This document shows positions 9,844 through 48,441 of a stretch of DNA of 64,000 bases, piece after piece. Numbering within the stretch: position 1 is the stretch's first letter; each line of letters opens with the position of its first letter. The notes beneath the pieces are model-generated. The model saw only the letters and a list, made by a program, of their open reading frames with translations. It made no database searches and had not been told where the DNA came from. Position numbers and translations under genes: made by a program. This stretch comes from a virus. Lineage: Duplodnaviria > Caudoviricetes. The stretch is taken from IMG/VR virus record IMGVR_UViG_3300034170_000057; one strand, written 5' to 3'.

Positions 9844-10343
9844 CAGCTAATCGTAAGAAAACCGAAACCCTGCATATGCGCCTGAATTTCCGCCATAAGC
9901 TGTATCTGGTCGCACTCGCAAACGTGCAAGAAACCACGGCGTCTAGTTACGTGGAAACGCTGCTGGATAATTTGGCAGCTAAGCAGACCGTGGACGGTTG
10001 CCTCGGCACGCTGACGATTAAAGACGCCGTGGATATTGCGATAATCAAAGGCTCGCCAGCCATGACCGCACTGCGCACGTTTTATATCGCGCCTCAAATT
10101 CTAAGCCCGTCTGATATGGCAATGCAGCGTGCCCTAGAATGCAACATGGATTATTTCGGCGGCACTGACGAAATTCTAACAGCGGATGAAATTGGAACGG
10201 GCCAGCGCCCACCGTCTGTAAACGCCGCGTTGCTTGCGGACCATCTTGAGGTTTTGCAGGAATACGCAAACTTCGCAAAATCGAACCCGCATATGGTTAT
10301 GTCCTACGTCGATTATCGCCGTTGCACTGGCCGCTCTGAATAA
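9840..10343 (+). CDS. putative ribbon-helix-helix domain protein
   Basis: N-terminal TETLHMRLNFRHKLYLVALANVQETTASSYVETLL fits the RHH/CopG strand-helix-helix pattern. Confidence 0.55.
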   Translation: MTANRKKTETLHMRLNFRHKLYLVALANVQETTASSYVETLLDNLAAKQTVDGCLGTLTIKDAVDIAIIKGSPAMTALRTFYIAPQILSPSDMAMQRALECNMDYFGGTDEILTADEIGTGQRPPSVNAALLADHLEVLQEYANFAKSNPHMVMSYVDYRRCTGRSE

Positions 10344-10353
10344 GGATCACGTG

Positions 10354-10740
10354 ATGCAAACTTTTATGAGTTGGTTTCCGCACTGGTATATCGGCGCCTG
10401 CTTTATGTTGGGTTTCGTGATTCTGCCGATCATGGTTTTTCTGGCGTCTCGCCCGTTGCTCATTGGTTTGAGTTACGGCCTTTGGGAAACCGTGTGCTGG
10501 TACAAGTGCGGCCTGCCGATGTGGAAAGTTTTCCGGCGCCTTTTTATTGCGGTGCTGTGGGATACTTTCACATGGCGCCTTATCAACAGCTACACGGAAA
10601 ACGTGAGCCACAACGAAGGGAGCTGGAGCGGCATTTTCCGCTGGAGTTTCCGAAAAACATTTACCCGCGCTGCTGGCAAGAAATTTATTGCACAGCAAGC
10701 GGCGGCAAAACGTAAAGCAGCTATGGACGCAGACGTATGA
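10354..10740 (+). CDS. membrane protein
   Basis: AAGGA RBS; TM segment WYIGACFMLGFVILPIMVFLA. Confidence 0.75.
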   Translation: MQTFMSWFPHWYIGACFMLGFVILPIMVFLASRPLLIGLSYGLWETVCWYKCGLPMWKVFRRLFIAVLWDTFTWRLINSYTENVSHNEGSWSGIFRWSFRKTFTRAAGKKFIAQQAAAKRKAAMDADV

Positions 10741-11186: not shown

Positions 11187-11663
11187 ATGACCACTCTCAA
11201 CACGATCAAGAAAGGCCCGTTCAAAGGCATGGTGCTGATTGTAAACGACCACATTAAATCGAAGGCTGTCCTGTGGCCGCACGAAGCCGCCATGGAAATT
11301 GAAAAGGGCGCCCGCGTAGTCGAGGAAAAAGAATGGGATGCTTTCAAAACGCAATCCATGATCGACCGGGATACAAAGGCCGTCGCGCCTATTGAAGCGG
11401 AGCCCGTCGCGCCTATTGTTGAGGGGCCAGATTTTTCGATTCTGGATTTGCCCGGTACGCGCCGCGTTGTGAAAGTGCAAGTCTCTGAAAAATTCTACGC
11501 GGAGACACGGGAATTCGAAAGCGGCTGGGGTAACAAGCGCGATGACCTGCTGGAATTCGACACGGCGGAAGAACGGGATGCGTGGTGCAAAGCCTACAAC
11601 CTGAAACACAACAGTGAAGCCGCCACGCCAGCGTGGTACATAAAAGCCTTCGTGTTGAATTAA
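11187..11663 (+). CDS. hypothetical protein with short VAPI repeat
   Basis: AAGGGA RBS; ccgtcgcgcctattg at 11380 and 11404. Confidence 0.8.
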   Translation: MTTLNTIKKGPFKGMVLIVNDHIKSKAVLWPHEAAMEIEKGARVVEEKEWDAFKTQSMIDRDTKAVAPIEAEPVAPIVEGPDFSILDLPGTRRVVKVQVSEKFYAETREFESGWGNKRDDLLEFDTAEERDAWCKAYNLKHNSEAATPAWYIKAFVLN

Positions 11664-11734
11664 TCACTGCTGCACATTCTGAGGTCTAGAGTGTGCAACG
11701 GGATAAACTCCAATCACAAACGAGGAAGTGAAAG

Positions 11735-12418
11735 ATGACCGAGATTATTTATCTGATTTTAGAAGTGCTGGGGGTTGCATCCCTGCTTTATGTTTTCGTC
11801 AGATATGTGGTGCCATCGCTGCTGTGGTTATCGGCTGCCGTTTTCGGTTTCCGATGCCACCTGACGATTGCGAAACTGCACGGAATTGATACGGCGCCTA
11901 TTTGGGCAAGCGCGCCCCGGCATATTTTTCGTGCGTGGATGGAACATATGGATTACCACGTAACGCTGCGTGATCCTGATTTGTCGTATCACTACCGCAC
12001 CGGCACCCACAACAGCGTCACGAAGAATGAACCGTGGCTAGATCAATTGGCAACCGCACTTCGCCTCGGTCGCACGCTTATGCGCCTCGACGTTTTCAAG
12101 GATGGCGCGGACCTGCAAGTAAACGAAACGCTGAATTGTTCGATTGCGACGTTGCCTCCCGGCCTTTTGGGTAGGGATGGTTTTTACCGCGTGCTGTTTC
12201 TGTATCCGGAATCGCCGGTTATGGAATCGGTGATCGGCCTCGACCTCGTGCGTATGTTCAAAACAATTAAATACTACATGCCCGGACTGGACTATGTGGT
12301 GGTGGTAAACCCACGCCAGTTGATCGACGGTAAACACAACCTGATCGAATATCTGTCTGCCACTAACGGCATATGGATCGGCTGTGACCATCTGGCTTTT
12401 GAAATACCCAAGGACTGA
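11735..12418 (+). CDS. membrane-anchored hypothetical protein
   Basis: GAGGAAG RBS; N-terminal TM segments. Confidence 0.75.
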   Translation: MTEIIYLILEVLGVASLLYVFVRYVVPSLLWLSAAVFGFRCHLTIAKLHGIDTAPIWASAPRHIFRAWMEHMDYHVTLRDPDLSYHYRTGTHNSVTKNEPWLDQLATALRLGRTLMRLDVFKDGADLQVNETLNCSIATLPPGLLGRDGFYRVLFLYPESPVMESVIGLDLVRMFKTIKYYMPGLDYVVVVNPRQLIDGKHNLIEYLSATNGIWIGCDHLAFEIPKD

Positions 12419-12435
12419 CTGCCGTTGAGGCGAAG

Positions 12436-12567
12436 GCGCTCGCTGTTGCTGGTGCGTCCCACGACATAGGCAACGTTCTAACGGGCCTCGGTGAACGTGA
12501 GGGGCTGTTTCTGCAATGGGCACAGGGTCGCAGAGGCTTGAAGTTGAAACGTTGCTGTAGCGAGTGC
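12436..12567 (+). ncRNA. candidate branched structured RNA (unassigned)
   Basis: Nested helices 12436-12446/12557-12567, 12470-12477/12548-12555, 12507-12514/12530-12537 and 12486-12489/12499-12502 in a gene-free gap that ends in a terminator. Confidence 0.45.
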
Positions 12568-12570
12568 AAG

Positions 12571-12598
12571 CGGCCCCTGTAGGGGCTGTTTTCGTTTG
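12571..12598 (+). terminator. intrinsic terminator
   Basis: cggcccc-tgta-ggggctg followed by ttttcgttt. Confidence 0.7.
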
Positions 12599-12688
12599 TT
12601 GACCGTTCGTCAGTCGATAGGTACAATGAAAACCAGTCGGGCAAGTTGCGCCCACGATTCACCCACTCACGCAATAAGGGAAGTTAGA
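12599..12688 (+). promoter_or_regulatory. sigma70-like promoter plus conserved leader (copy 4)
   Basis: TTGACC(12599)-N17-TACAAT(12622); hairpin gggc/gccc 12639-12653; CACTCAC 12664; GGAAGTT 12679. Confidence 0.8.
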
Positions 12689-13153
12689 ATGAACAGCCTA
12701 AATGCTTTGCCATCCCTGCAATTCAATATCGCCACCTGCGCAGAATCCACCGAACTGCGCGTGCAGTTGCAGGACGGTTTAGTTACCGAAACCGAATTCC
12801 TCAAAAAGCTGATCGACCTTGCAACGCGTCACCGCGTGTTGCCGGTTGCAGTGCTGGCACAATTTGCAGACGGTGCTTTTCCTTACGGCGTTGCTGTAGG
12901 GAGTTACGAAAGTGACGGCAGTGAAAATTGCAAATACTGCGACGACTTCGCCAGCCTACGGGATGCGATTGTGGCGTGGGGGCATTATTCGCCGGGTGCG
13001 GCATGGGCGCGGTTAGAACATCGCGTAGACAATTTTGTGTACGGCCTTGACCCTTACAAAATTCGTAAGGCCAAAAAGGTTGTAGACGACAACGGCGAAG
13101 CGCGCACGCTGTACATGATGTGCGATGCCAACGGCAACTTTCTGGAGAATTGA
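12689..13153 (+). CDS. hypothetical protein
   Basis: Start moved to ATG 12689, after the leader. Confidence 0.8.
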   Translation: MNSLNALPSLQFNIATCAESTELRVQLQDGLVTETEFLKKLIDLATRHRVLPVAVLAQFADGAFPYGVAVGSYESDGSENCKYCDDFASLRDAIVAWGHYSPGAAWARLEHRVDNFVYGLDPYKIRKAKKVVDDNGEARTLYMMCDANGNFLEN

Positions 13154-13155
13154 GA

Positions 13156-13353
13156 ATGTCCGACAAGGCAATGGAAGACGCAATCGCGGAAGCAGAGCGC
13201 AACGGTAGCAGCCGCGTGAAAATTCCCCAAGACGGGAAACCGCGCTGCCGGAACTGCGGATACGTTACCAGCGAGCGGGGGCCATTCAATGAGCCTCTGC
13301 ACTCTGCCTGCTGGGCGGAAGAGGACGAAGCCATAGACGCCCTTTCAACGTAA
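13156..13353 (+). CDS. small putative Zn-finger protein
   Basis: GGAGA RBS; CRNC...HSAC. Confidence 0.65.
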   Translation: MSDKAMEDAIAEAERNGSSRVKIPQDGKPRCRNCGYVTSERGPFNEPLHSACWAEEDEAIDALST

Positions 13354-13374
13354 CCGGCACCACGCCAAGACAAG

Positions 13375-13430
13375 CCCGCCCTGTGCGGGTTTTGTCCGTA
13401 GTAAAACAAATCGACCTTTATCAAGGAATT
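13375..13430 (+). repeat. intergenic cassette copy 2 (hairpin plus RBS)
   Basis: cccgccctgtgcggg-ttttgtccgtagt...cctttatcaaggaatt; matches 343-389. Confidence 0.75.
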
Positions 13431-13435
13431 GCATC

Positions 13436-14674
13436 ATGTCCAAGAACAAAGAAGTTACCGCCGCACAACAGAACGCTATCCGTCTGATCATCACAGAGCA
13501 AATGGGACTGAAACGCGGGCACCCGATTTGTTCCACCGCTTCGATTGAACACTCCCTGAAAATCGACGATTTGGATCTGGACGAAATCGTCATGAACATG
13601 GAAGAGGAATTCGAAATCGCAATTCCAAACCATGTAGTTAAAAAATGGAACATCGTCTCGGATATGGAACAGTTCATCGCGAACAAAGCGCCGAAGGATT
13701 ACGGGAGTTCGTTCCGGGTTGCACAGCCGAAGAAAATGGCTGTGAAGAAATCCACGGCTGTTGCGCAGCCTGCGAAGTTCCTGAATGGCCGTTCGCACAA
13801 CCTCATGCAGGTTATGGACGAACTTGAGAAAAAGTTGAAGCCTACGAAAGCCACGCAGGGTTTCACAATGCGCAGCGAAGGCACCAGCACCATCGCCTGT
13901 TACGCGGCTGACCCTTCGGTGCCGTTTGCGCGTGCTGTGGTATCGGTAAGCGAAGGCTTTAACGGGTTCCGTTTGTACGTCGGCAAAATGCTGGTGATCG
14001 AACACAACATCGGTTCCGAATCGCACATTCTGGAATTGTGTGAGTTGGCGCGCCATGCGGGCGCATCCATGCCGGTAAGTCTCGACGACTGGATGATTAA
14101 CGTAATCGTGCGTTACGTATCGTGTGTGAAGAAAACGCTGCGATATATGCAGCACCTGAGCAATCACAAAGACGCCATGCAGCAGTTGTATAATTTGCAA
14201 AACACGTTCGAATTAAAAATCTCGACACGGGTTTTCGATTTCTACGCTGGCGACCACCTTCTGGAAAATTGTTCGGCGGATGTGCTGCGCGTGTTTACCG
14301 AAATGCTGGAATCGGTTCACACCAAAGACGGCGTTGGCTACACATACGGTTCTTCGTTCCGTGAGGGTGACGACGAAGACGACGATGGCGAAGACGAATT
14401 CCCATCCGAAACTATTATCGTCGAGGACGAAGACGAAATCGTGGATTTGCTGGCTGCCGTTTCTACGCCCGGTCTGGTCGCCATTTTCAACCACATCGCG
14501 AATCTAGGCATGGGCGATTTTGACAATTCCGAAGTTTACGAATTGTCGGGTATTAAACGCCGGATCGAAATCATCCACGAACTCTGCGACAACCTGCACA
14601 TGGCGGCGCTGGTGGAATGCGCACAGGCCGTCGATTTGAAACCGGGTGACGCGGCAATTTTTGCCGGGAGATAA
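13436..14674 (+). CDS. multidomain protein with N-terminal ACP-like domain (Ser to Asp) and acidic tract
   Basis: IITEQMGLK...ASIEHSLKIDDLDLDEIVMNMEEEFEIAIP aligns with ACP IIGEQLGVK...[30 protein letters not shown]. Confidence 0.8.
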   Translation: MSKNKEVTAAQQNAIRLIITEQMGLKRGHPICSTASIEHSLKIDDLDLDEIVMNMEEEFEIAIPNHVVKKWNIVSDMEQFIANKAPKDYGSSFRVAQPKKMAVKKSTAVAQPAKFLNGRSHNLMQVMDELEKKLKPTKATQGFTMRSEGTSTIACYAADPSVPFARAVVSVSEGFNGFRLYVGKMLVIEHNIGSESHILELCELARHAGASMPVSLDDWMINVIVRYVSCVKKTLRYMQHLSNHKDAMQQLYNLQNTFELKISTRVFDFYAGDHLLENCSADVLRVFTEMLESVHTKDGVGYTYGSSFREGDDEDDDGEDEFPSETIIVEDEDEIVDLLAAVSTPGLVAIFNHIANLGMGDFDNSEVYELSGIKRRIEIIHELCDNLHMAALVECAQAVDLKPGDAAIFAGR

Positions 14675-14677
14675 AAA

Positions 14678-14875
14678 ATGGTTAAGGTAGTTTCTGCACC
14701 GCCCCTGCTTTTTCGTTGCACCAGTTGCGGTGCGACGTGTGAGGGTGAAGAAAAAGATTTCAAAGAGCAGCACACAATGCCGCCGACGTGGAAAGTCAAA
14801 TGCGGTTATTGCAACCTGACAAATACCGTCAGCCCTTCGGCGCTGATTTCAAGACTGGTCGGCACACGCTTTTAA
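14678..14875 (+). CDS. Zn-ribbon protein
   Basis: CTSC and CGYC pairs in 65 aa. Confidence 0.75.
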   Translation: MVKVVSAPPLLFRCTSCGATCEGEEKDFKEQHTMPPTWKVKCGYCNLTNTVSPSALISRLVGTRF

Positions 14876-14890
14876 TCGAGGAAGTAAAAG

Positions 14891-15466
14891 ATGGATAAGT
14901 TGAAACTTGCAAAATGGATTCGTGACGCAATGGCCGCCCGCGAAAATTCATTCGATACGGTGGCGTCTGCACAGGCGCAGGAAAACGCCTACCGTGAACG
15001 GGAATTGATGGTCGCGGCTGGCGATAAACATGCCTACATGTACGGCATTGTCGATCACGCCAAGTTCTACCGCATGACCCAACGTGAAGCGGTCGAAAGC
15101 GTGGTTCCTGCGGAGTTCGTGGAACCTGTTTATCTGCTGCTGGTGACAGCGTGGAACGATATCCAAGGCTGGTGTGACGATGTGGAAGGGATCGTGCGCC
15201 CTGCGCGTTCCTACGCGGTCACAGGCACAGAAGCCGATAGTGACTCTCACGTAATGGGCGGCGACTACAACTTCGAAACCACGTTCGATCCGGGTACGCC
15301 TGACGAAAAGAAATGTCAGACGCAGGTATGGGCACCGAACATGCTCCACGCCGCTTTCCAAGTCGGCCAACTGTTCGCGGAAAAGTTCGCGACTGATTTC
15401 ACCGTGGTTCCTATCCAGCCAGTGATTCTGAAACTGGAAAAGGTGGGCGAAGCTGAAGCCACGTAA
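14891..15466 (+). CDS. hypothetical protein
   Basis: GAGGAAG RBS, 191 aa. Confidence 0.8.
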   Translation: MDKLKLAKWIRDAMAARENSFDTVASAQAQENAYRERELMVAAGDKHAYMYGIVDHAKFYRMTQREAVESVVPAEFVEPVYLLLVTAWNDIQGWCDDVEGIVRPARSYAVTGTEADSDSHVMGGDYNFETTFDPGTPDEKKCQTQVWAPNMLHAAFQVGQLFAEKFATDFTVVPIQPVILKLEKVGEAEAT

Positions 15467-15550
15467 TTAACCTGACCCACTTTAATGCACATTCGTTGAG
15501 TGTGCATTGCAGATAAATCAGCATTCTCCTAACCGTAAAGGATACCCGAA

Positions 15551-16378
15551 ATGAGACAGACCGAAGTCCGTGCTAAATTCCCCGACCACAAATTGGTTTT
15601 CTCCGTCGCCAAAGCCCGTGCGTTTGAAAATCGAACGCTGTCGATTTACGTGAAGGGCACCAACGAATTCGTGGCGACCATCGAACAGCGGTCTGAAAAA
15701 GCTGTGGCGATGATCGTGCGACCGGGCCGGGGTAAAACTGCTTTGGCGAAATTCGTAGCGTTCGCGGAAGTGGGCAGCTACAAAAACGTGCATGAAGTTG
15801 AAAAGGCGATGAACGCCGAGCGTAAATTCGACGGCCTCGGAAATGTCGAGTGGGAAGACGCCCGCAAACAGTTCGTCAAAATGCAGGATCAGGATTTCGA
15901 CACGCTTATCAAAATGCTGGCTGTTTATTTCGGCGTGCTGGAAAATCGCAACAACGGCTATTCTAGTGAGCATTTCCAGTACCTGACTGCACAAGGTAAG
16001 ACGCTGTACCGTAATGCCGTGCAGATTGCTTCTGGCGCTACCTACGACACCGGCACAAAGGTTCCTGCGTTCCCCGGTAACGGCGGGCCGTTGCGTGAAC
16101 TGGCAATGTCTCCCGATGATCTGGCTAAGGCTTCCAAGCTGCTGCAAACGTCGCCAGTGGCACAGGTTGCACAAACCATTGCCGAGGGTAAGCAGAAACG
16201 TGAAGACCTCGACAAACGCACCGTGTGGGGCGCTGAAGACGACGCGATTTTCGAAATGGTCCAAGCCGATCACAAAATCCTATCTGATCGTCTGGCTGTT
16301 CTGTATTCCGCACGCGGCAGTAAAATCTCGATTCCGGAATTTGATCGTATCCGGAAAGCAAAAAAGGAAGCGCAATAA
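15551..16378 (+). CDS. hypothetical protein
   Basis: AAGGA RBS, 275 aa, biased codons. Confidence 0.85.
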   Translation: MRQTEVRAKFPDHKLVFSVAKARAFENRTLSIYVKGTNEFVATIEQRSEKAVAMIVRPGRGKTALAKFVAFAEVGSYKNVHEVEKAMNAERKFDGLGNVEWEDARKQFVKMQDQDFDTLIKMLAVYFGVLENRNNGYSSEHFQYLTAQGKTLYRNAVQIASGATYDTGTKVPAFPGNGGPLRELAMSPDDLAKASKLLQTSPVAQVAQTIAEGKQKREDLDKRTVWGAEDDAIFEMVQADHKILSDRLAVLYSARGSKISIPEFDRIRKAKKEAQ

Positions 16379-16875
16379 TGCCTAAATCATCATCGTTCAT
16401 TATCAAGACGCGGCAGACCAACGGAATTACGGAACAGTTCGCCCGGTTAGTCGGGTATGAGCCGTACCCGGATGGCCGGTTTCTACAGGTTGGCGACAAC
16501 GGCGTTAAATGCCTGTACCGGCCCCTGATTGACGAAAACGGTTACGAAGGTGTGTGCCCCGTCGAATTCAATCCGTATGAAAACGGCAGCGATGCAATGC
16601 AGGTCGCCGCGTATTTGCGTGCATTTATTTGCGTGAGTGCTGACGGAAAACAAGTCAGCGTGGCAACCAACGATTTCGAAGCGGTTGCAGATTTGCCACA
16701 AAACAAGTCGTACATGCAACAGCATGCGAAAATCATGCGCGATACGATCATGGCCGTGGCTGCAATGTACGTGAAGAAACATTTCGACATTGACCCGCCA
16801 GTAAATACAACGACGCGTTCGGAAACCCACGAACCCACCGCCGCCCCTCACGTAAAGACCTACATCAAGGAATAA
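16378..16875 (+). CDS. phage protein with FNP-x-E-x-x-S-D-A motif (NinX/DUF2591-like, tentative)
   Basis: EFNPYENGSDAMQVAAYL resembles the WNPLxDDGDALRLA phage motif. Confidence 0.55.
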   Translation: MPKSSSFIIKTRQTNGITEQFARLVGYEPYPDGRFLQVGDNGVKCLYRPLIDENGYEGVCPVEFNPYENGSDAMQVAAYLRAFICVSADGKQVSVATNDFEAVADLPQNKSYMQQHAKIMRDTIMAVAAMYVKKHFDIDPPVNTTTRSETHEPTAAPHVKTYIKE

Positions 16876-16880
16876 TCAAA

Positions 16881-17207
16881 ATGATGTTGTCGTGCAATAA
16901 AGTCAGCCGCGATCTTTCTGCGTGGACCCCTGAACAATTTTCGTTGGTGCAGAAATTCGCCCCGGCCAATCACCCGCTGATGTTTCCTGTGGACGAAAAG
17001 CCGATTTATTTGACGCTGGATAAATGCGTCGATCAGTTGAGCGATATTCACATCCGCATTATTCGTGATTTCGATTTTCGCGATCAGCTATCGGAACGTG
17101 TGCAACTGCACCAAGCTGGTTTGCTTGTAATGATCCTAATGGACCTGCTGATGCGTAGTGGCATTGCAGGAACCGAAACCCTGACATGGGACTACGGCGA
17201 TGAGTAA
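16881..17207 (+). CDS. hypothetical protein
   Basis: AAGGA RBS, 108 aa. Confidence 0.7.
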   Translation: MMLSCNKVSRDLSAWTPEQFSLVQKFAPANHPLMFPVDEKPIYLTLDKCVDQLSDIHIRIIRDFDFRDQLSERVQLHQAGLLVMILMDLLMRSGIAGTETLTWDYGDE

Positions 17208-18231
17208 AATTTACGTGGATCTTTCCATAGGCCAGACCACGCCAATCGGTAAGGCACTGGGGCACATCTGGTACAGCAACCGGGCTCTGCGTGATCTAGG
17301 GCCGGGTATCAGTGGCTATCCGCACAACGGCGGCGAGCATTCCATGAGCATTACAGGCACGCCTGACGACTGCTTAGCGTTCATGGATTTGATCGGGGAG
17401 AAATATCCGATTGCACGCGACGACATGAATTTGTTTTCGTCGCACGTGAAAGCAAATCCTGAAAAGAAAAGTTTCGAAGCGCGGCAATTCTTCAACGATT
17501 TGCTGCGTCTGGAAATGGCGATCAGTTGCCACACGATTGATCTTTCGTCGGGTGAACGGAATATGTTCGGGGCCAACGTCCTGCACATGTACGAAATCCG
17601 TAAAGACCTTATGGCGAAGGCGCCGAACCTGTGTGGTTATCCGCACCCTGAATACGGCTCGATGTTTATCCAAGGTACGGGCCTTGAACTGGATAAATTC
17701 CTCAACGAATTTTCCACCGTGTACGACGACGCACAAACCTGCGAAGCCTGTGATGATATGCAGCGTGCATTGCGTGAAGGCCAGCCGGTGATTCGCGCCT
17801 ACCGTTACCTGCACCCGGAGAAATATCAGCCGGTATTTCCAGACTCCTATATGTTCGGGAAATTCACGCAGGTTTATATGGTCGAGGAACAATTCTCTTT
17901 CGGCCACATGATTTCGGCGCGTGATTCGTTTATCGGTAAGGCCCTGTGGGAAGTGGTGGACGTTACCTACACGCCTAAAAACTTCACGGTGTATTTCGTG
18001 AATGATTTCGCCATGGCGTTTACCTACAAAGAAATCGGTTTCGAATACGGCGAAGAAACAGACTTCGCATCTGATTACTCGCCAGCGTCCCGGACAGCAC
18101 CGGAAGGCGAAGCGATGGTTAGATTGCAGCAGTGCATTCGTTCCTACGCCGACCGCTACGACGAAAAGTTGGCGTGGTTTGCCGAGCAGATTGCAAACGA
18201 TCCACGCTACGGAAAACAGGGGCAGAGCTAA
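17200..18231 (+). CDS. hypothetical protein with internal GYPH repeat
   Basis: GISGYPHNGGEHSMSITGT versus NLCGYPHPEYGSMFIQGT. Confidence 0.8.
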   Translation: MSKIYVDLSIGQTTPIGKALGHIWYSNRALRDLGPGISGYPHNGGEHSMSITGTPDDCLAFMDLIGEKYPIARDDMNLFSSHVKANPEKKSFEARQFFNDLLRLEMAISCHTIDLSSGERNMFGANVLHMYEIRKDLMAKAPNLCGYPHPEYGSMFIQGTGLELDKFLNEFSTVYDDAQTCEACDDMQRALREGQPVIRAYRYLHPEKYQPVFPDSYMFGKFTQVYMVEEQFSFGHMISARDSFIGKALWEVVDVTYTPKNFTVYFVNDFAMAFTYKEIGFEYGEETDFASDYSPASRTAPEGEAMVRLQQCIRSYADRYDEKLAWFAEQIANDPRYGKQGQS

Positions 18232-24291: not shown

Positions 24292-24367
24292 ATAAGGCCC
24301 GCTGTAAAAGTAGTAATCGGGAAGTCTAACGGTAGAACAACCCTTAACGTGGAAAGTGAGAAAACAA

Positions 24368-26371
24368 ATGAGTGATTTTACCCAGTTCGGTAAAGCCGTA
24401 CACAACGCGTTCAACACCATGCTCGCCAAAGATAACGGCAAGAAAAACAACGTGTTTGTCGTGGCTGCAACCGGTGATGAATTGTGGGCGCATTACCTTG
24501 CGTCATTCCCTGAAGGCACCAACCCGATTTTCCGCACGCGCACTGAATACGATTGTTCGTGCTGCAAAAACTTTATCCGGAATATCGGCGGTGTAGTTTT
24601 CATGCAGGGCGGCGTTCGCCAGTCTGTGTGGGATATCGTTATCGAAGACGAACTGTTCCAGACCATCGCGGATTCCATGGCGAAGTTCGTAAAGAAATTG
24701 CCAATCGCACACCATTTCATCGTCAGCGAACCAGCCTACGGCGCTGAGACAACCAACACCAACGGCGAGAAGTGGCACCACTTCCACGCCAAGGTGCCTG
24801 CAATTTTCCTGTGGAAGCACAACGAAAGTAACTACGTCGGCGTGCGCCAAAACAACGTCGATGGTCTGAAGCGTTCCATCAAAGAAATTTCCGATGAATC
24901 CATCGAACAAGTTAGCGACTTGATTGATCAGGATTCGCTGTACAAGGGAGCGGAGTTCAAGTGGGCTATTGACCTGCTGCGCAAACTGAAACGTCAGTAC
25001 GCCGCACTGAAAACCAAAGCGAAGCGTGAATCGTTTTTGTGGGAAAACGCAACGGACCACACAAACATTCGTGGCAACGTGCTGGGTACGCTGCTGATTG
25101 ACCTGACAAAGGGCAAAGACCTCGAAGAAGCCGTGAAGGCATTCGAATTTAAAACCGCTGGCCCGAACTACAAGCGTTCGAAAGCACTGGTCAGCCAACG
25201 CATGATCGACGAAGCACAAAAGACAGTTGAAAAACTGGGCCTCGACGATTCGCTGTCACGTCGTTACGCAGTGCGTGAAGACATTTCGGTAAACGATGTT
25301 TTGTTTGTCGATGGTTCCGTGAAAAAGCAACTGCTGGGCGGCGCGTTCGACAGCATCAAGCCGACCAAGAAAGCGGCGGTGCCAGAACTGAAAGAAGTCG
25401 AAGAAATCAATTACAAAGATTTCCTCAAAAAGGTTCTGCCAAAAGCCGATACGCTCGAAGTGTTCTTGACCAATGAACACATGTCGAATTTCGTCAGCCT
25501 GATTGCGCCGGTACACGCCGATGCAAAACCGCTGCTGAAATGGGACAACGCATTTTCGTGGTCATACGACGGTGAAGTTACCGATTCGATCCGTGAGCGC
25601 GTGAAGAAAGCCGGTGGTAAAGTTGACGGTGATATTCGCGTGTCGCTTTCGTGGCACAACGCGGACGACCTCGACCTGCACATGACCAATGGCCGGGAAG
25701 AGATTTACTATCACAGCCGTAGCCACTTCGGCGCCACGCTCGACGTGGACATGAACGGCATGGACAAACGCGACGATGTGGCCCCGGTGGAAAACATCGT
25801 GTGGTCCAACAAAGCCAATGCGAAACCGGGCCGTTACGAAATTGTTGTGCATAATTACAGCAAGCGTTCCACGGCAAACGTCGGCTTCGAAGTTGAAGTC
25901 GAAGTGCTGGGCAAAATGTACAGCTACGCACACCCTACCGACCTTCGCGGTCAAGGTCGTATCACGGTTGGTTTTATCGTCGTTGCAAAAGACGGTGCAA
26001 TTACCGTGGAAGGCCTGAAGTTCGGCGGTTCGTCGAGTGAGAAATGGGGCGTGAAATCCGAAGAGTGGATTCCGGTCGATCTGATCACGAAGTCTCCGAA
26101 CTTCTGGAATGATCAAACCGTAGGCCATGAGCATATTTTCCTGATGCTCAAAGGCTGCGCAAACGAAGAGGGCACACGCGGTTTCTACAACGAATACCTG
26201 CGTGACGAACTGCACCCGCACCGTAAAGTTTTCGAAGTCGTTTCTTCGCAAATGAAAGTGCCGTACAGCGCTGATCAATTGAGCGGCCTTGGCTTCTCGA
26301 CTTCCAAGCGTGCCGAAATTCTGGTGCGTGTGAAAGGTGCAATCAATCGCGTTCTGAACGTTAAGTTCTAA
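24368..26371 (+). CDS. large protein with C-terminal YfaP/DUF2135-like beta-sandwich domain
   Basis: GDIRVSLSWHNADDLDLHM...LDVDMNG...PVENIVW...GRYEIVVHNY is the YfaP/DUF2135 signature. Confidence 0.7.
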   Translation: MSDFTQFGKAVHNAFNTMLAKDNGKKNNVFVVAATGDELWAHYLASFPEGTNPIFRTRTEYDCSCCKNFIRNIGGVVFMQGGVRQSVWDIVIEDELFQTIADSMAKFVKKLPIAHHFIVSEPAYGAETTNTNGEKWHHFHAKVPAIFLWKHNESNYVGVRQNNVDGLKRSIKEISDESIEQVSDLIDQDSLYKGAEFKWAIDLLRKLKRQYAALKTKAKRESFLWENATDHTNIRGNVLGTLLIDLTKGKDLEEAVKAFEFKTAGPNYKRSKALVSQRMIDEAQKTVEKLGLDDSLSRRYAVREDISVNDVLFVDGSVKKQLLGGAFDSIKPTKKAAVPELKEVEEINYKDFLKKVLPKADTLEVFLTNEHMSNFVSLIAPVHADAKPLLKWDNAFSWSYDGEVTDSIRERVKKAGGKVDGDIRVSLSWHNADDLDLHMTNGREEIYYHSRSHFGATLDVDMNGMDKRDDVAPVENIVWSNKANAKPGRYEIVVHNYSKRSTANVGFEVEVEVLGKMYSYAHPTDLRGQGRITVGFIVVAKDGAITVEGLKFGGSSSEKWGVKSEEWIPVDLITKSPNFWNDQTVGHEHIFLMLKGCANEEGTRGFYNEYLRDELHPHRKVFEVVSSQMKVPYSADQLSGLGFSTSKRAEILVRVKGAINRVLNVKF

Positions 26372-29327: not shown

Positions 29328-29589
29328 ATATTCTAACATACGTCGTGAAGACGAAGGCCATCGTTTCTTCCCTGAAGTGGGTTGCAACCTTAACGATTTT
29401 ATCCGCGAAGTTCTGCACTTGATGCAGCACCGAAACTTCCCGATCCAGCCGTTTAAAGCGGTGTGCGTTTTCTGTGAAACTTCGACGTTCGAAATTGAAC
29501 TTGATCACCACGACGATGACGAATCCGCCATCCGAAAATACCGTGCGGAATTCGATGAAATTTGCCGCGCCTATGGAGACGACGTATGA
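29320..29589 (+). CDS. hypothetical protein
   Basis: 89 aa, GGAAG RBS. Confidence 0.7.
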   Translation: MREYSNIRREDEGHRFFPEVGCNLNDFIREVLHLMQHRNFPIQPFKAVCVFCETSTFEIELDHHDDDESAIRKYRAEFDEICRAYGDDV

Positions 29590-30170
29590 GCCTGTCCAAA
29601 AAGCAACAGCAACTCGCATTCGAACTGGTGTGCGCCCATGACCACAAGCTGGCTACGGCGCTGCGCGAGGCCTTCACGGATTCCGACCGGTTGACCTATC
29701 TGGAAAAGCGCACGGCCCTTTCGTCTAGCGGCCTGTCGATCAATCCAAACATGTACCAGAAACCCCCGGCAAAAACATTCAGTTTTATGTGGCGCTTTGA
29801 ATGCACTGATCCGAAGCCGTCACTGCGTGCAGCAATCGACGACGCAGCGAAAAATTACCCGCTGCCAGATGTGGACGCGTGGGACGAAGACCACACAGAA
29901 GGCGAATCTGTATGCGGACGTTTGAACGATGCTGCATACGAAAAAATGGTACGTGAAATTCACGACATGGTTTCTTGCACCATCGGTAGCAAACAGTTCC
30001 AATCGACATTCGCAGACATGGGTGCCGACAATCTGGATATGGTCGATCTGACCCTGAGTATCGAACAGCATTTCGAACTCGAAATTCCTGATGCAGATGT
30101 GGACCTGTGGAAAACTACGCAGGACGTTATCAACTACGTGCAACGCCGTATATCCGAGGTGAAGAAATGA
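29586..30170 (+). CDS. protein with C-terminal ACP-like domain (Ser to Asn)
   Basis: STFADMGADNLDMVDLTLSIEQHFELEIPDADVDLWKTTQDVINYV aligns with ACP helices II-IV. Confidence 0.8.
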   Translation: MSLSKKQQQLAFELVCAHDHKLATALREAFTDSDRLTYLEKRTALSSSGLSINPNMYQKPPAKTFSFMWRFECTDPKPSLRAAIDDAAKNYPLPDVDAWDEDHTEGESVCGRLNDAAYEKMVREIHDMVSCTIGSKQFQSTFADMGADNLDMVDLTLSIEQHFELEIPDADVDLWKTTQDVINYVQRRISEVKK

Positions 30171-47241: not shown

Positions 47242-48441
47242 ATGCATGTAAATCTCGATCACCCGGCGGGTACTTACACCACTCGCCAAACAGTTGACTG
47301 GCAAGCGAGTCAAAGCGTCGATTTCGTAATGTTCACCGTTAACGGATTGATGCCTACGCTTTCCGAGTACGTGGCCTACGATACGCTCAACCCACCAAAC
47401 CCTTTTATCGCTGTGACGCAGGACGGGCGCGGTAACGTTGTGTATGACGGTGGCTTTCCGAAGTTCTACAACATGTCGGCGCCAGCAGCGGGCACAGCAT
47501 TTGCCAGCTTATCCGGTGCCCACAAATACCTGTACAACGCGCTGAATTTCGTGAGCAATAAAGCGAAGGTCAACGCAGGCAATCGCAAAGTGCTTATTTT
47601 GGGCGATGCAATTGCAGCAGAAAACTACCCGGTCAAAAGTGCTACGCCAACCGGTTTTTATACGACGTTCGTAAACGTGTTTGCGATTGCTGGATACACA
47701 CCAGTTTTCAAAGACCGCGCAGACTACAGCGGCACGCTGAATCCTACGCTTGAGGAACTCGACGGCTATTGCGCGGTGTTGTTGCTATCGTCGGATTACT
47801 CCACGCCAACCGGACGTTTCACAGCGGCGGGCGTCACGGCAATGGTGGCGTACCGGGAAGCCGGAAACGGTGTGATCCTGATCACTGACCACGGCCCGGA
47901 TATTCCGGACGTTACAACCGCAGCTAACGGCGCATACGGCGCGTTCTTCCGCACGGCAAACCAACTAGTGGCTGAATATGGCGCGTTCTTCAGCGGCCTC
48001 TATGATCGCACGCCGGTTAACGTGGGTTTCCTGCGCAGCACGTATGGGGATCACCTGCTGTATAACGGCATGGCGAACACTGACAACATTGCAGCCGGAC
48101 CTTCTGAGTCGCGAGTATTCATCGCGAACTATCCGCGCTACAAACCAAACGAATTGCCGAAACTCGAATTAGAAACTGGCTGCTACAACATCCAGATTCT
48201 GACGCGCCTGAAAGACGGCACGGTCGAGATTCAACGGCAGACAATTTGTATCGACAAAACCGGCGCAGGTCGGACGTTTGTCCGTAAGCTGTACGTTCGT
48301 GAAACCAGCACTAGCCCTTGGGTTGTGAATTTCGCCAAAGGTGGCTGGGGCGTTTACAAACAAATGCAGCTGATCCGCATGACCCCCGCGAATACCGTGA
48401 TGTGGGATGCAAAACTGAAAGATTGGGTGGGAGTTAAATAG
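47242..48441 (+). CDS. 399-aa alpha/beta protein, class-I GATase/flavodoxin-like fold tentative; possibly virion-associated
   Basis: RKVLILGD...LDGYCAVLLLSS...YREAGNGVILITDH pattern. Confidence 0.55.
   Translation: MHVNLDHPAGTYTTRQTVDWQASQSVDFVMFTVNGLMPTLSEYVAYDTLNPPNPFIAVTQDGRGNVVYDGGFPKFYNMSAPAAGTAFASLSGAHKYLYNALNFVSNKAKVNAGNRKVLILGDAIAAENYPVKSATPTGFYTTFVNVFAIAGYTPVFKDRADYSGTLNPTLEELDGYCAVLLLSSDYSTPTGRFTAAGVTAMVAYREAGNGVILITDHGPDIPDVTTAANGAYGAFFRTANQLVAEYGAFFSGLYDRTPVNVGFLRSTYGDHLLYNGMANTDNIAAGPSESRVFIANYPRYKPNELPKLELETGCYNIQILTRLKDGTVEIQRQTICIDKTGAGRTFVRKLYVRETSTSPWVVNFAKGGWGVYKQMQLIRMTPANTVMWDAKLKDWVGVK

Follow-up and report, generated by a model that had tools for sequence, protein, structure and literature searches.

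An acyl carrier protein domain without its serine, fused to an undescribed module in a jumbo phage, as a probable cofactor-free docking surface

We analysed 64,000 nucleotides of the virus record IMGVR_UViG_3300034170_000057 (IMG/VR; Duplodnaviria, Caudoviricetes), and refer to this whole stretch of DNA as the window. It is part of a jumbo phage akin to the Pseudomonas phages Lu11, pf16 and HRDY3, has HRDY3 as its sole nucleotide-level match, and carries nearly all of its long open reading frames (ORFs) on the + strand. One of these, ORF 13436–14674 (+), encodes a 412-amino-acid (aa) protein in which an N-terminal domain homologous to acyl carrier proteins (ACPs), here called the head, lacks the serine that bears phosphopantetheine and is joined by a basic linker to a tail module. 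We consider it moderately probable that this carrier-dead head persists as a docking surface that needs no cofactor, within an adaptor protein that is not an enzyme. Docking is the most likely role of the head in view of its invariant acidic helix II, and the best explanation has the whole as an accessory protein, without enzymatic activity, of a jumbo phage of the Lu11/HRDY3 type.

The head (residues 8–85; 13457–13690, +), in which residues 45–60 correspond to helix II, can on its database matches be regarded as a true homologue of type II acyl carrier proteins. Residues 13–76 matched Escherichia coli ACP (E 5e-7, phmmer of residues 1–95 against PDB sequences). A profile of 12 homologous heads matched solved ACPs at E 1.2e-10 over residues 8–84, that is, the whole ACP length, with the ACP chain of the Bacillus subtilis AcpS–ACP complex 1F80 as the top PDB match, and PHROG 5934 (‘acyl carrier protein’) matched the head at E 6.5e-10. 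Against Pfam PP-binding (PF00550) the window's own sequence reached 15.2 bits, below the 20.8 cut-off, yet all 12 homologues matched that family (best E 1.2e-6). These results confirm the ACP assignment made in an earlier reading of this DNA from its letters (hereafter the sequence-only reading). That reading had described a residue-for-residue alignment with bacterial ACP; the homology and the placing of Asp45 opposite Ser36 of E. coli ACP stand, whereas the alignment is not strictly gap-free, there being one single-residue indel in loop I. It had also given the DNA at this point as gac gat ttg, which is what lies at 13565–13573 (GAC GAT TTG, encoding D44 D45 L46), and had seen a fusion to an unrecognised part of ~330 aa, which corresponds to the ~327-aa remainder without a Pfam or PHROG match. 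A word-index search with the head alone returned no close free-standing relatives.

The position of the phosphopantetheine-bearing Ser36 is thus taken by Asp45 (GAT, 13568–13570). We followed this site through 12 full-length homologues (50–77% identity, on contigs of up to 314 kb), to which two loci from DNA scans were added, one of them from a metagenome scan. Across the 14 sequences of the clade the equivalent column holds Gly in eight, Asp in three, Thr in two and Ser in one. The codon is GAT in the window, L012 and L017, GGT in L011, L013, L014 and L015, GGA in L016 and L004, ACA in L025 and TCA in L006, these codons being drawn from nine independent assemblies. A sequencing error or recent drift can therefore be rejected, since most of the 14 clade sequences have a residue other than serine; with Ser in only 1 of the 14, its absence is a lasting state. 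The sequence-only reading had further proposed that Asp could mimic the modified serine. This idea is unsupported, because Gly is the usual state while Asp is a minority and Thr and Ser also occur; the identity of the residue at this site does not appear to be constrained. In E. coli ACP the S36T substitution cannot be modified and is non-functional (PMC3340395), and therefore the Thr, Asp and Gly forms should all be carrier-dead; by this analogy the earlier claim that the head cannot be loaded with an acyl chain is upheld. Serine is confined to L006 (a 312-kb IMG/VR contig), which the tree places beside a Gly-bearing sister within the Gly clade; this serine may represent retention, reversal or recombination. 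Positive selection at this codon was also considered, as the near-identical L016 and L006 differ there by a two-base change (GGA/TCA), and found to be unsupported: 10 of the 412 codons in the pair carry two-base changes.

The head is under purifying selection. By the Nei–Gojobori method on 10 coding sequences, the ratio of non-synonymous to synonymous substitution rates (dN/dS) is ~0.33 for the head and 0.27 for the whole gene; of the other parts, the tail core has 0.17, the C-terminal bundle 0.41 and the acidic tract 0.47. Mean pairwise identity among the 12 homologues is 67% over head residues 8–85 and 76% in the helix II segment, against 73% in the tail core, 59% in the C-terminal bundle and 48% in the acidic tract. 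Twenty-five of the 78 head positions are invariant, including the surface glutamates of helix II, E50, E56, E57, E58 and E60, which are equivalent to E41, E47–49 and D51 of E. coli ACP. Trp71, also invariant, is aligned with Ile62 of E. coli ACP, a residue that we take to line the acyl pocket, and judging from this alignment the tryptophan may fill that pocket. Of F50 and I54, which are absolutely conserved in ACP and required for its stability (PMC3340395), the first has an invariant counterpart here in F59 and the second a nearly invariant one in I63.

Set beside bacterial AcpP (PF00550; PDB 1F80 chain D, 1L0H), the phage head is homologous over the whole ~77-residue domain, is likewise acidic overall, and has the equivalents of D38, E41 and E47–49 in helix II together with those of F50 and I54–P55. 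It differs in having Asp (Gly or Thr elsewhere in the clade) in place of Ser36, and so no cofactor, and in its Trp at the Ile62 position, an extra loop residue, a 327-aa tail and a score under the Pfam cut-off.

The head is followed by a Lys/Pro-rich basic linker (residues 86–113; 13691–13774, +) with a net charge of +5, an invariant QPKK..VK motif and a predicted local distance difference test (pLDDT) score below 50 in AlphaFold2 (AF2) models. The tail module then comprises an N-part (residues 114–300; 13775–14335, +), predicted to be an alpha/beta sandwich, and a C-part (residues 334–412; 14435–14674 including the stop codon, +), predicted to be a six-helix bundle. Between them lies an acidic low-complexity tract (residues 301–333; 14336–14434, +; net charge −14), predicted to be disordered (pLDDT <50); an acidic tract is common to all members of the family. 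The AF2 model of the tail, from 20 sequences, has a mean pLDDT of 80.4, with most blocks of both folded parts at 82–95. In this model the N-part (about protein residues 119–293) consists of one helix, a five-stranded antiparallel sheet and a helical layer, its pLDDT lying mostly at 82–95 over model residues 11–160 and dropping to about 57–75 at the end of the part; it carries the conserved motifs EGFNGFRLY and HN.GSESHI and is the most conserved part of the protein (73% identity, dN/dS 0.17, as given above). The modelled helix bundle of the C-part (residues about 331–410; block pLDDT 82–92) has the conserved motifs D.L..(S/T)T..L and R.R..I..L.

No Pfam or PHROG family covers residues 95–412, and a profile search of 1.8 billion representatives recovered only 11 tail-module proteins, indicating a small family, to which a second word-index search added nothing of note. 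When PDB, AFDB clusters, Swiss-Prot and BFVD were searched with the tail model by Foldseek, nothing matched at E <= 0.001, the weak rows being only UBC-like folds (E 0.03–1) and uncharacterised phage proteins, and the ESM Atlas, searched by features and by structure, gave nothing usable. An E2/UBC fold, suggested by an HN.G....C motif, was rejected: Cys202 lies in a predicted helix and is Ala, His or Tyr in distant members. With VIA-align the N-part met frataxin at Z 5–5.6 (root-mean-square deviation (rmsd) about 4, about 90 of 120 residues aligned) and, weakly, Med17, Rv3902c, TriTu and PsiB at Z 6–7, all below the tool's trust level. The C-part met death-fold proteins (PYD/CARD/DD) at Z 6–7 (rmsd 2.5–3.1, 70–85 residues), below the trust line for helical bundles, and had no death-fold Pfam match. 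The likeness to frataxin/CyaY and to the death fold is one of topology only, with no sequence signal and no sharing of functional residues. Invariance across 20 module members is limited to G, L, D, L, T, R and I, with no Cys, His, Ser, Lys or Glu among the invariant positions. So few invariant residues, none of them catalytic, point to a protein that binds or serves as a scaffold rather than to an enzyme.

The module occurs both with and without the head. In HRDY3 its syntenic orthologue XDJ15348.1 (337 aa, annotated as hypothetical; E 5e-53) has the alpha/beta core, acidic tract and C-terminal bundle but begins exactly at the linker end and has no ACP head, and the gene preceding it is not ACP-like; head-less modules are also present in five further distant lineages. 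Conversely, P0024, encoded at locus L002 on a 280-kb contig, is a distant positional orthologue with the same head–linker–tail architecture, and L002 shares the flanking KTSC, DksA-type zinc-finger and DUF8224 genes with the window. The P0024 head is canonical (GGDSLD; 55.8 bits in Pfam) and 33% identical to the window head, and the two linkers are alike. One ancient fusion would be the simpler reading of the two heads, going by their sequences and linkers; the tree that groups P0024 with the head-bearing clade was built from full-length sequences and gives P0024 a very long branch. Since the module stands alone in some lineages and is fused to ACP in others, this pattern of fusion and splitting ties the module to ACP. 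Viral contigs contained no relatives of P0028, P0017 or P0021, and for P0024 the matches there were ACP-only. In L019, positions 9998–10675 encode a 225-aa protein in which an N-terminal canonical ACP (GADSLDE) precedes an unrelated domain of ~140 aa; this gene lies 3 kb downstream of the head-less module gene and its GNAT, and is a further case of ACP fusion within this group of phages.

The module is also linked to a small GNAT acyltransferase. In L002 and L019 the GNAT gene directly follows the module gene with a stop/start overlap, in L018 it lies about 1 kb downstream, and in HRDY3 the GNAT makes up the N-terminal part of XDJ15351, whose gene is 1.2 kb downstream. At L002 (11308–12598) the 127-aa GNAT gene, with its stop/start overlap, is followed by a 312-aa paralogue of the module (hhalign probability 93.6%), so that ACP-module, GNAT and module-paralogue genes form a three-gene cluster. 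The window has an orthologue of XDJ15351 at 15551–16378 (+; 275 aa), which begins after an 85-nt spacer and covers only residues 189–372 of XDJ15351, the GNAT part being absent. No GNAT was found by Pfam in the genes from 11187 to 18231, and four GNATs used as tblastn queries matched nothing in the 64 kb of the window. A second ACP-like domain forms the C-terminus of ORF 29586–30170 (+; ~194 aa) and reads GADNLD, with the Asn codon AAT at 30030–30032. In its HRDY3 orthologue, XDJ15383, the DSL is retained, and after this protein comes XDJ15384, a free-standing ACP with DSL whose gene has no counterpart in the window; unlike the window head, neither of these functionally unassigned HRDY3 proteins is fused to the module. 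HRDY3 encodes no phosphopantetheinyl transferase (PPTase). The window lineage thus combines the absence of the GNAT domain at the module locus with that of the serine in both ACP-like domains.

From these data we infer a docking function, a class of partner and an ancestral system. Ancestrally, a genuine ACP probably acted together with a GNAT acyltransferase encoded next to it; in the present lineage the GNAT domain and both serines would have gone, leaving the binding role alone. Having lost its serine, the head would no longer be a carrier, yet it retains the core residues of the ACP fold and, in helix II, the acidic recognition surface, and is maintained by purifying selection. It may then attach the fused tail to a protein bearing an ACP-binding basic patch, for which the candidates are a host ACP client enzyme (as decoy or tether), the protein's own tail, or another phage protein. 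Several points weigh against this proposal. The serine of L006, together with the DSL of the distant orthologue, means that a carrier role exists or existed in the family, and the site may toggle. The joint loss of GNAT and serines is a single evolutionary event in one lineage, seen in 64 kb, and is a lead rather than a statistic. The four-helix fold of the head is putative, the full-length AF2 model (12 sequences) being poor, with a pLDDT of 46.7, and of 25–37 across the helix II region. Finally, the head is only ~33% identical to bacterial AcpP, which is low for a mimic of a host protein.

What the head docks to, if it docks, divides the explanations further. A carrier-dead head could behave as an obligate ‘apo-ACP’ that competitively occupies a host ACP client, such as the single PPTase PcpS, PlsB-type acyltransferases, or Fab, Lpx or acyl-homoserine lactone (AHL) synthase enzymes, blocking host lipid or signal synthesis while the tail adds avidity or localisation. 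Keating, Carey and Cronan reportedly observed in 1995 that apo-ACP inhibits the growth of E. coli. Such a host-takeover decoy would fit the invariance of the helix II acidic residues used by ACP clients, the AcpS-bound ACP chain as top PDB profile match, and the position of the gene among small unknown accessory genes typical of host-takeover regions; moreover, HRDY3 does not encode a PPTase, so that phage ACPs must come into contact with enzymes of the host. The low identity to AcpP nevertheless tells against a decoy, as does the imperfect mimicry (the invariant Trp71 for Ile62, the loop one residue longer), and the HRDY3 relative without a head implies that the tail can do its work alone, so that we regard this explanation as possible but unlikely. 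The partner might instead be internal to the phage. As a remnant of an ancestral ACP–GNAT–module system, the head would bind either the tail to which it is fused or a different phage protein, acting in cis in regulation or assembly and having no target in the host. This would agree with the Rosetta-stone pattern, module and ACP being fused in two lineages and the module being separate from free-standing ACPs in HRDY3 and L019, with the stop/start overlap of module and GNAT genes in L002 and L019, and with the basic linker (+5) between acidic head and tail. The GNAT, however, is absent at the matching window position and the head is conserved nonetheless; a complex prediction of the head with its own tail scored 0.00 and counts neither way. 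We hold an exclusively internal partner to be rather improbable.

It might also be that the head is on its way out, its function having been lost with the serine and the domain now serving as a folding or solubility appendage heading for deletion, as in HRDY3. That HRDY3 and five other lineages have no head, and that the Ser site is free to vary, would be expected of such a relic. Against this stand the dN/dS of ~0.33 (10 coding sequences) and the 25 invariant positions in 78, among them surface glutamates that a mere appendage would have no need of, and the head has been kept in 14 sequences diverged down to 50% identity; a decaying relic therefore seems very improbable to us. Least credible of all is that the head still acts as a carrier, through modification at another residue or because the Asp is a sequencing or assembly error, and we give this almost no weight. 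One clade member does have Ser (TCA) at the site and the distant orthologue has DSL, but the non-Ser codons GAT, GGT, GGA and ACA come from nine independent assemblies, no alternative Ser lies in register at the start of helix II, and S36T alone abolishes modification of E. coli ACP. Retention of the carrier-dead head as a cofactor-free docking surface is the explanation that we prefer. A bolder extension of it, which we put forward as a tentative and rather doubtful conjecture, is that viruses have repeatedly made use of ACP heads without the serine: jumbo phages would turn the universal docking helix of ACP into a cofactor-free hook with which to hijack or block the host ACP interactome. The targets would then be PPTase, lipid, lipopolysaccharide, quorum-signal or stringent-response enzymes, to which the protein would deliver its novel adaptor module, and the toggling between Gly, Asp, Thr and Ser would mark changes from a form that can be modified to one that cannot, and back.

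In function, the nearest precedent is the mitochondrial ACP of Plasmodium falciparum, which bears no phosphopantetheine and is yet essential through binding Isd11–Nfs1 (Falekun et al. 2021, PMC8547962). Both are ACP homologues retained without the cofactor, but the Plasmodium protein is a free-standing eukaryotic organelle protein with a known partner, neither fused nor viral, and its evolutionary link to the phage head is no closer than the ACP superfamily. Among phage proteins, the orphan ACPs of PHROG 5934 are the best PHROG match, and within this phage group a single genome arm carries several genes of ACP type. Jumbo phages with duplicated ACP genes have been mentioned, the serine not being addressed (PMC13573597). 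Our literature searches brought up no account of a phage ACP domain without the serine, nor of the tail module. What appears to be new is an ACP superfamily domain repurposed without its cofactor and fused to an undescribed, family-restricted module.

As regards the gene itself, the start at 13436 is supported by the N-terminus MSKNK.VTAAQ, which is kept in the homologues, and a ribosome-binding site, AAGGA, can be read from the sequence at 13423–13427 (+), 8 nt upstream of the ATG. The encoded protein is acidic overall (net charge −22, isoelectric point 5.05). No sigma-70-like promoter was found near the ORF. Between the upstream gene and the ribosome-binding site, at 13375–13397 (+), there is a GC-rich hairpin (CCCGC...GCGGG) followed by TTTTGT, a possible intrinsic terminator, which the scan program listed on the minus strand only. 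The ORF is flanked by two small ORFs with Cys pairs of zinc-ribbon-like appearance, of 77 aa (13120–13353, +) and 65 aa (14678–14875, +), and in all related loci the homologues are flanked by genes of 65 aa, or of 53 plus 64–66 aa. Elsewhere in the window, 24356–26371 (+) encodes a conserved 671-aa protein of PHROG 1735 (E 1.8e-257), 52–56% identical to Lu11, pf16 and HRDY3 proteins and present in 557 phage records (Ackermannviridae-like Salmonella/Klebsiella, Bacillus, Caulobacter and Pseudomonas phages); its L002 counterpart carries Pfam DUF8224, and no function is assigned to it. A 399-aa protein encoded at 47242–48441 (+) matches PHROG 11065, ‘virion structural protein’ (E 9.6e-120), and, more weakly, a beta-propeller repeat family.

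ACP is among the most connected of bacterial proteins, and its partners recognise the same acidic helix. A conserved, carrier-dead viral ACP domain would be a natural probe for ACP interactions that are independent of the cofactor. For the clade described here, the database label ‘acyl carrier protein’ that some members bear is functionally misleading. Within one gene lineage the head is seen in three states, as a canonical carrier with DSL, as a carrier-dead domain and as completely lost, and the linked GNAT gene has been lost too; this three-state series makes the family a useful case for the study of carrier-domain repurposing. If it is true that the head targets a host client, the protein would represent a new type of host-takeover protein.

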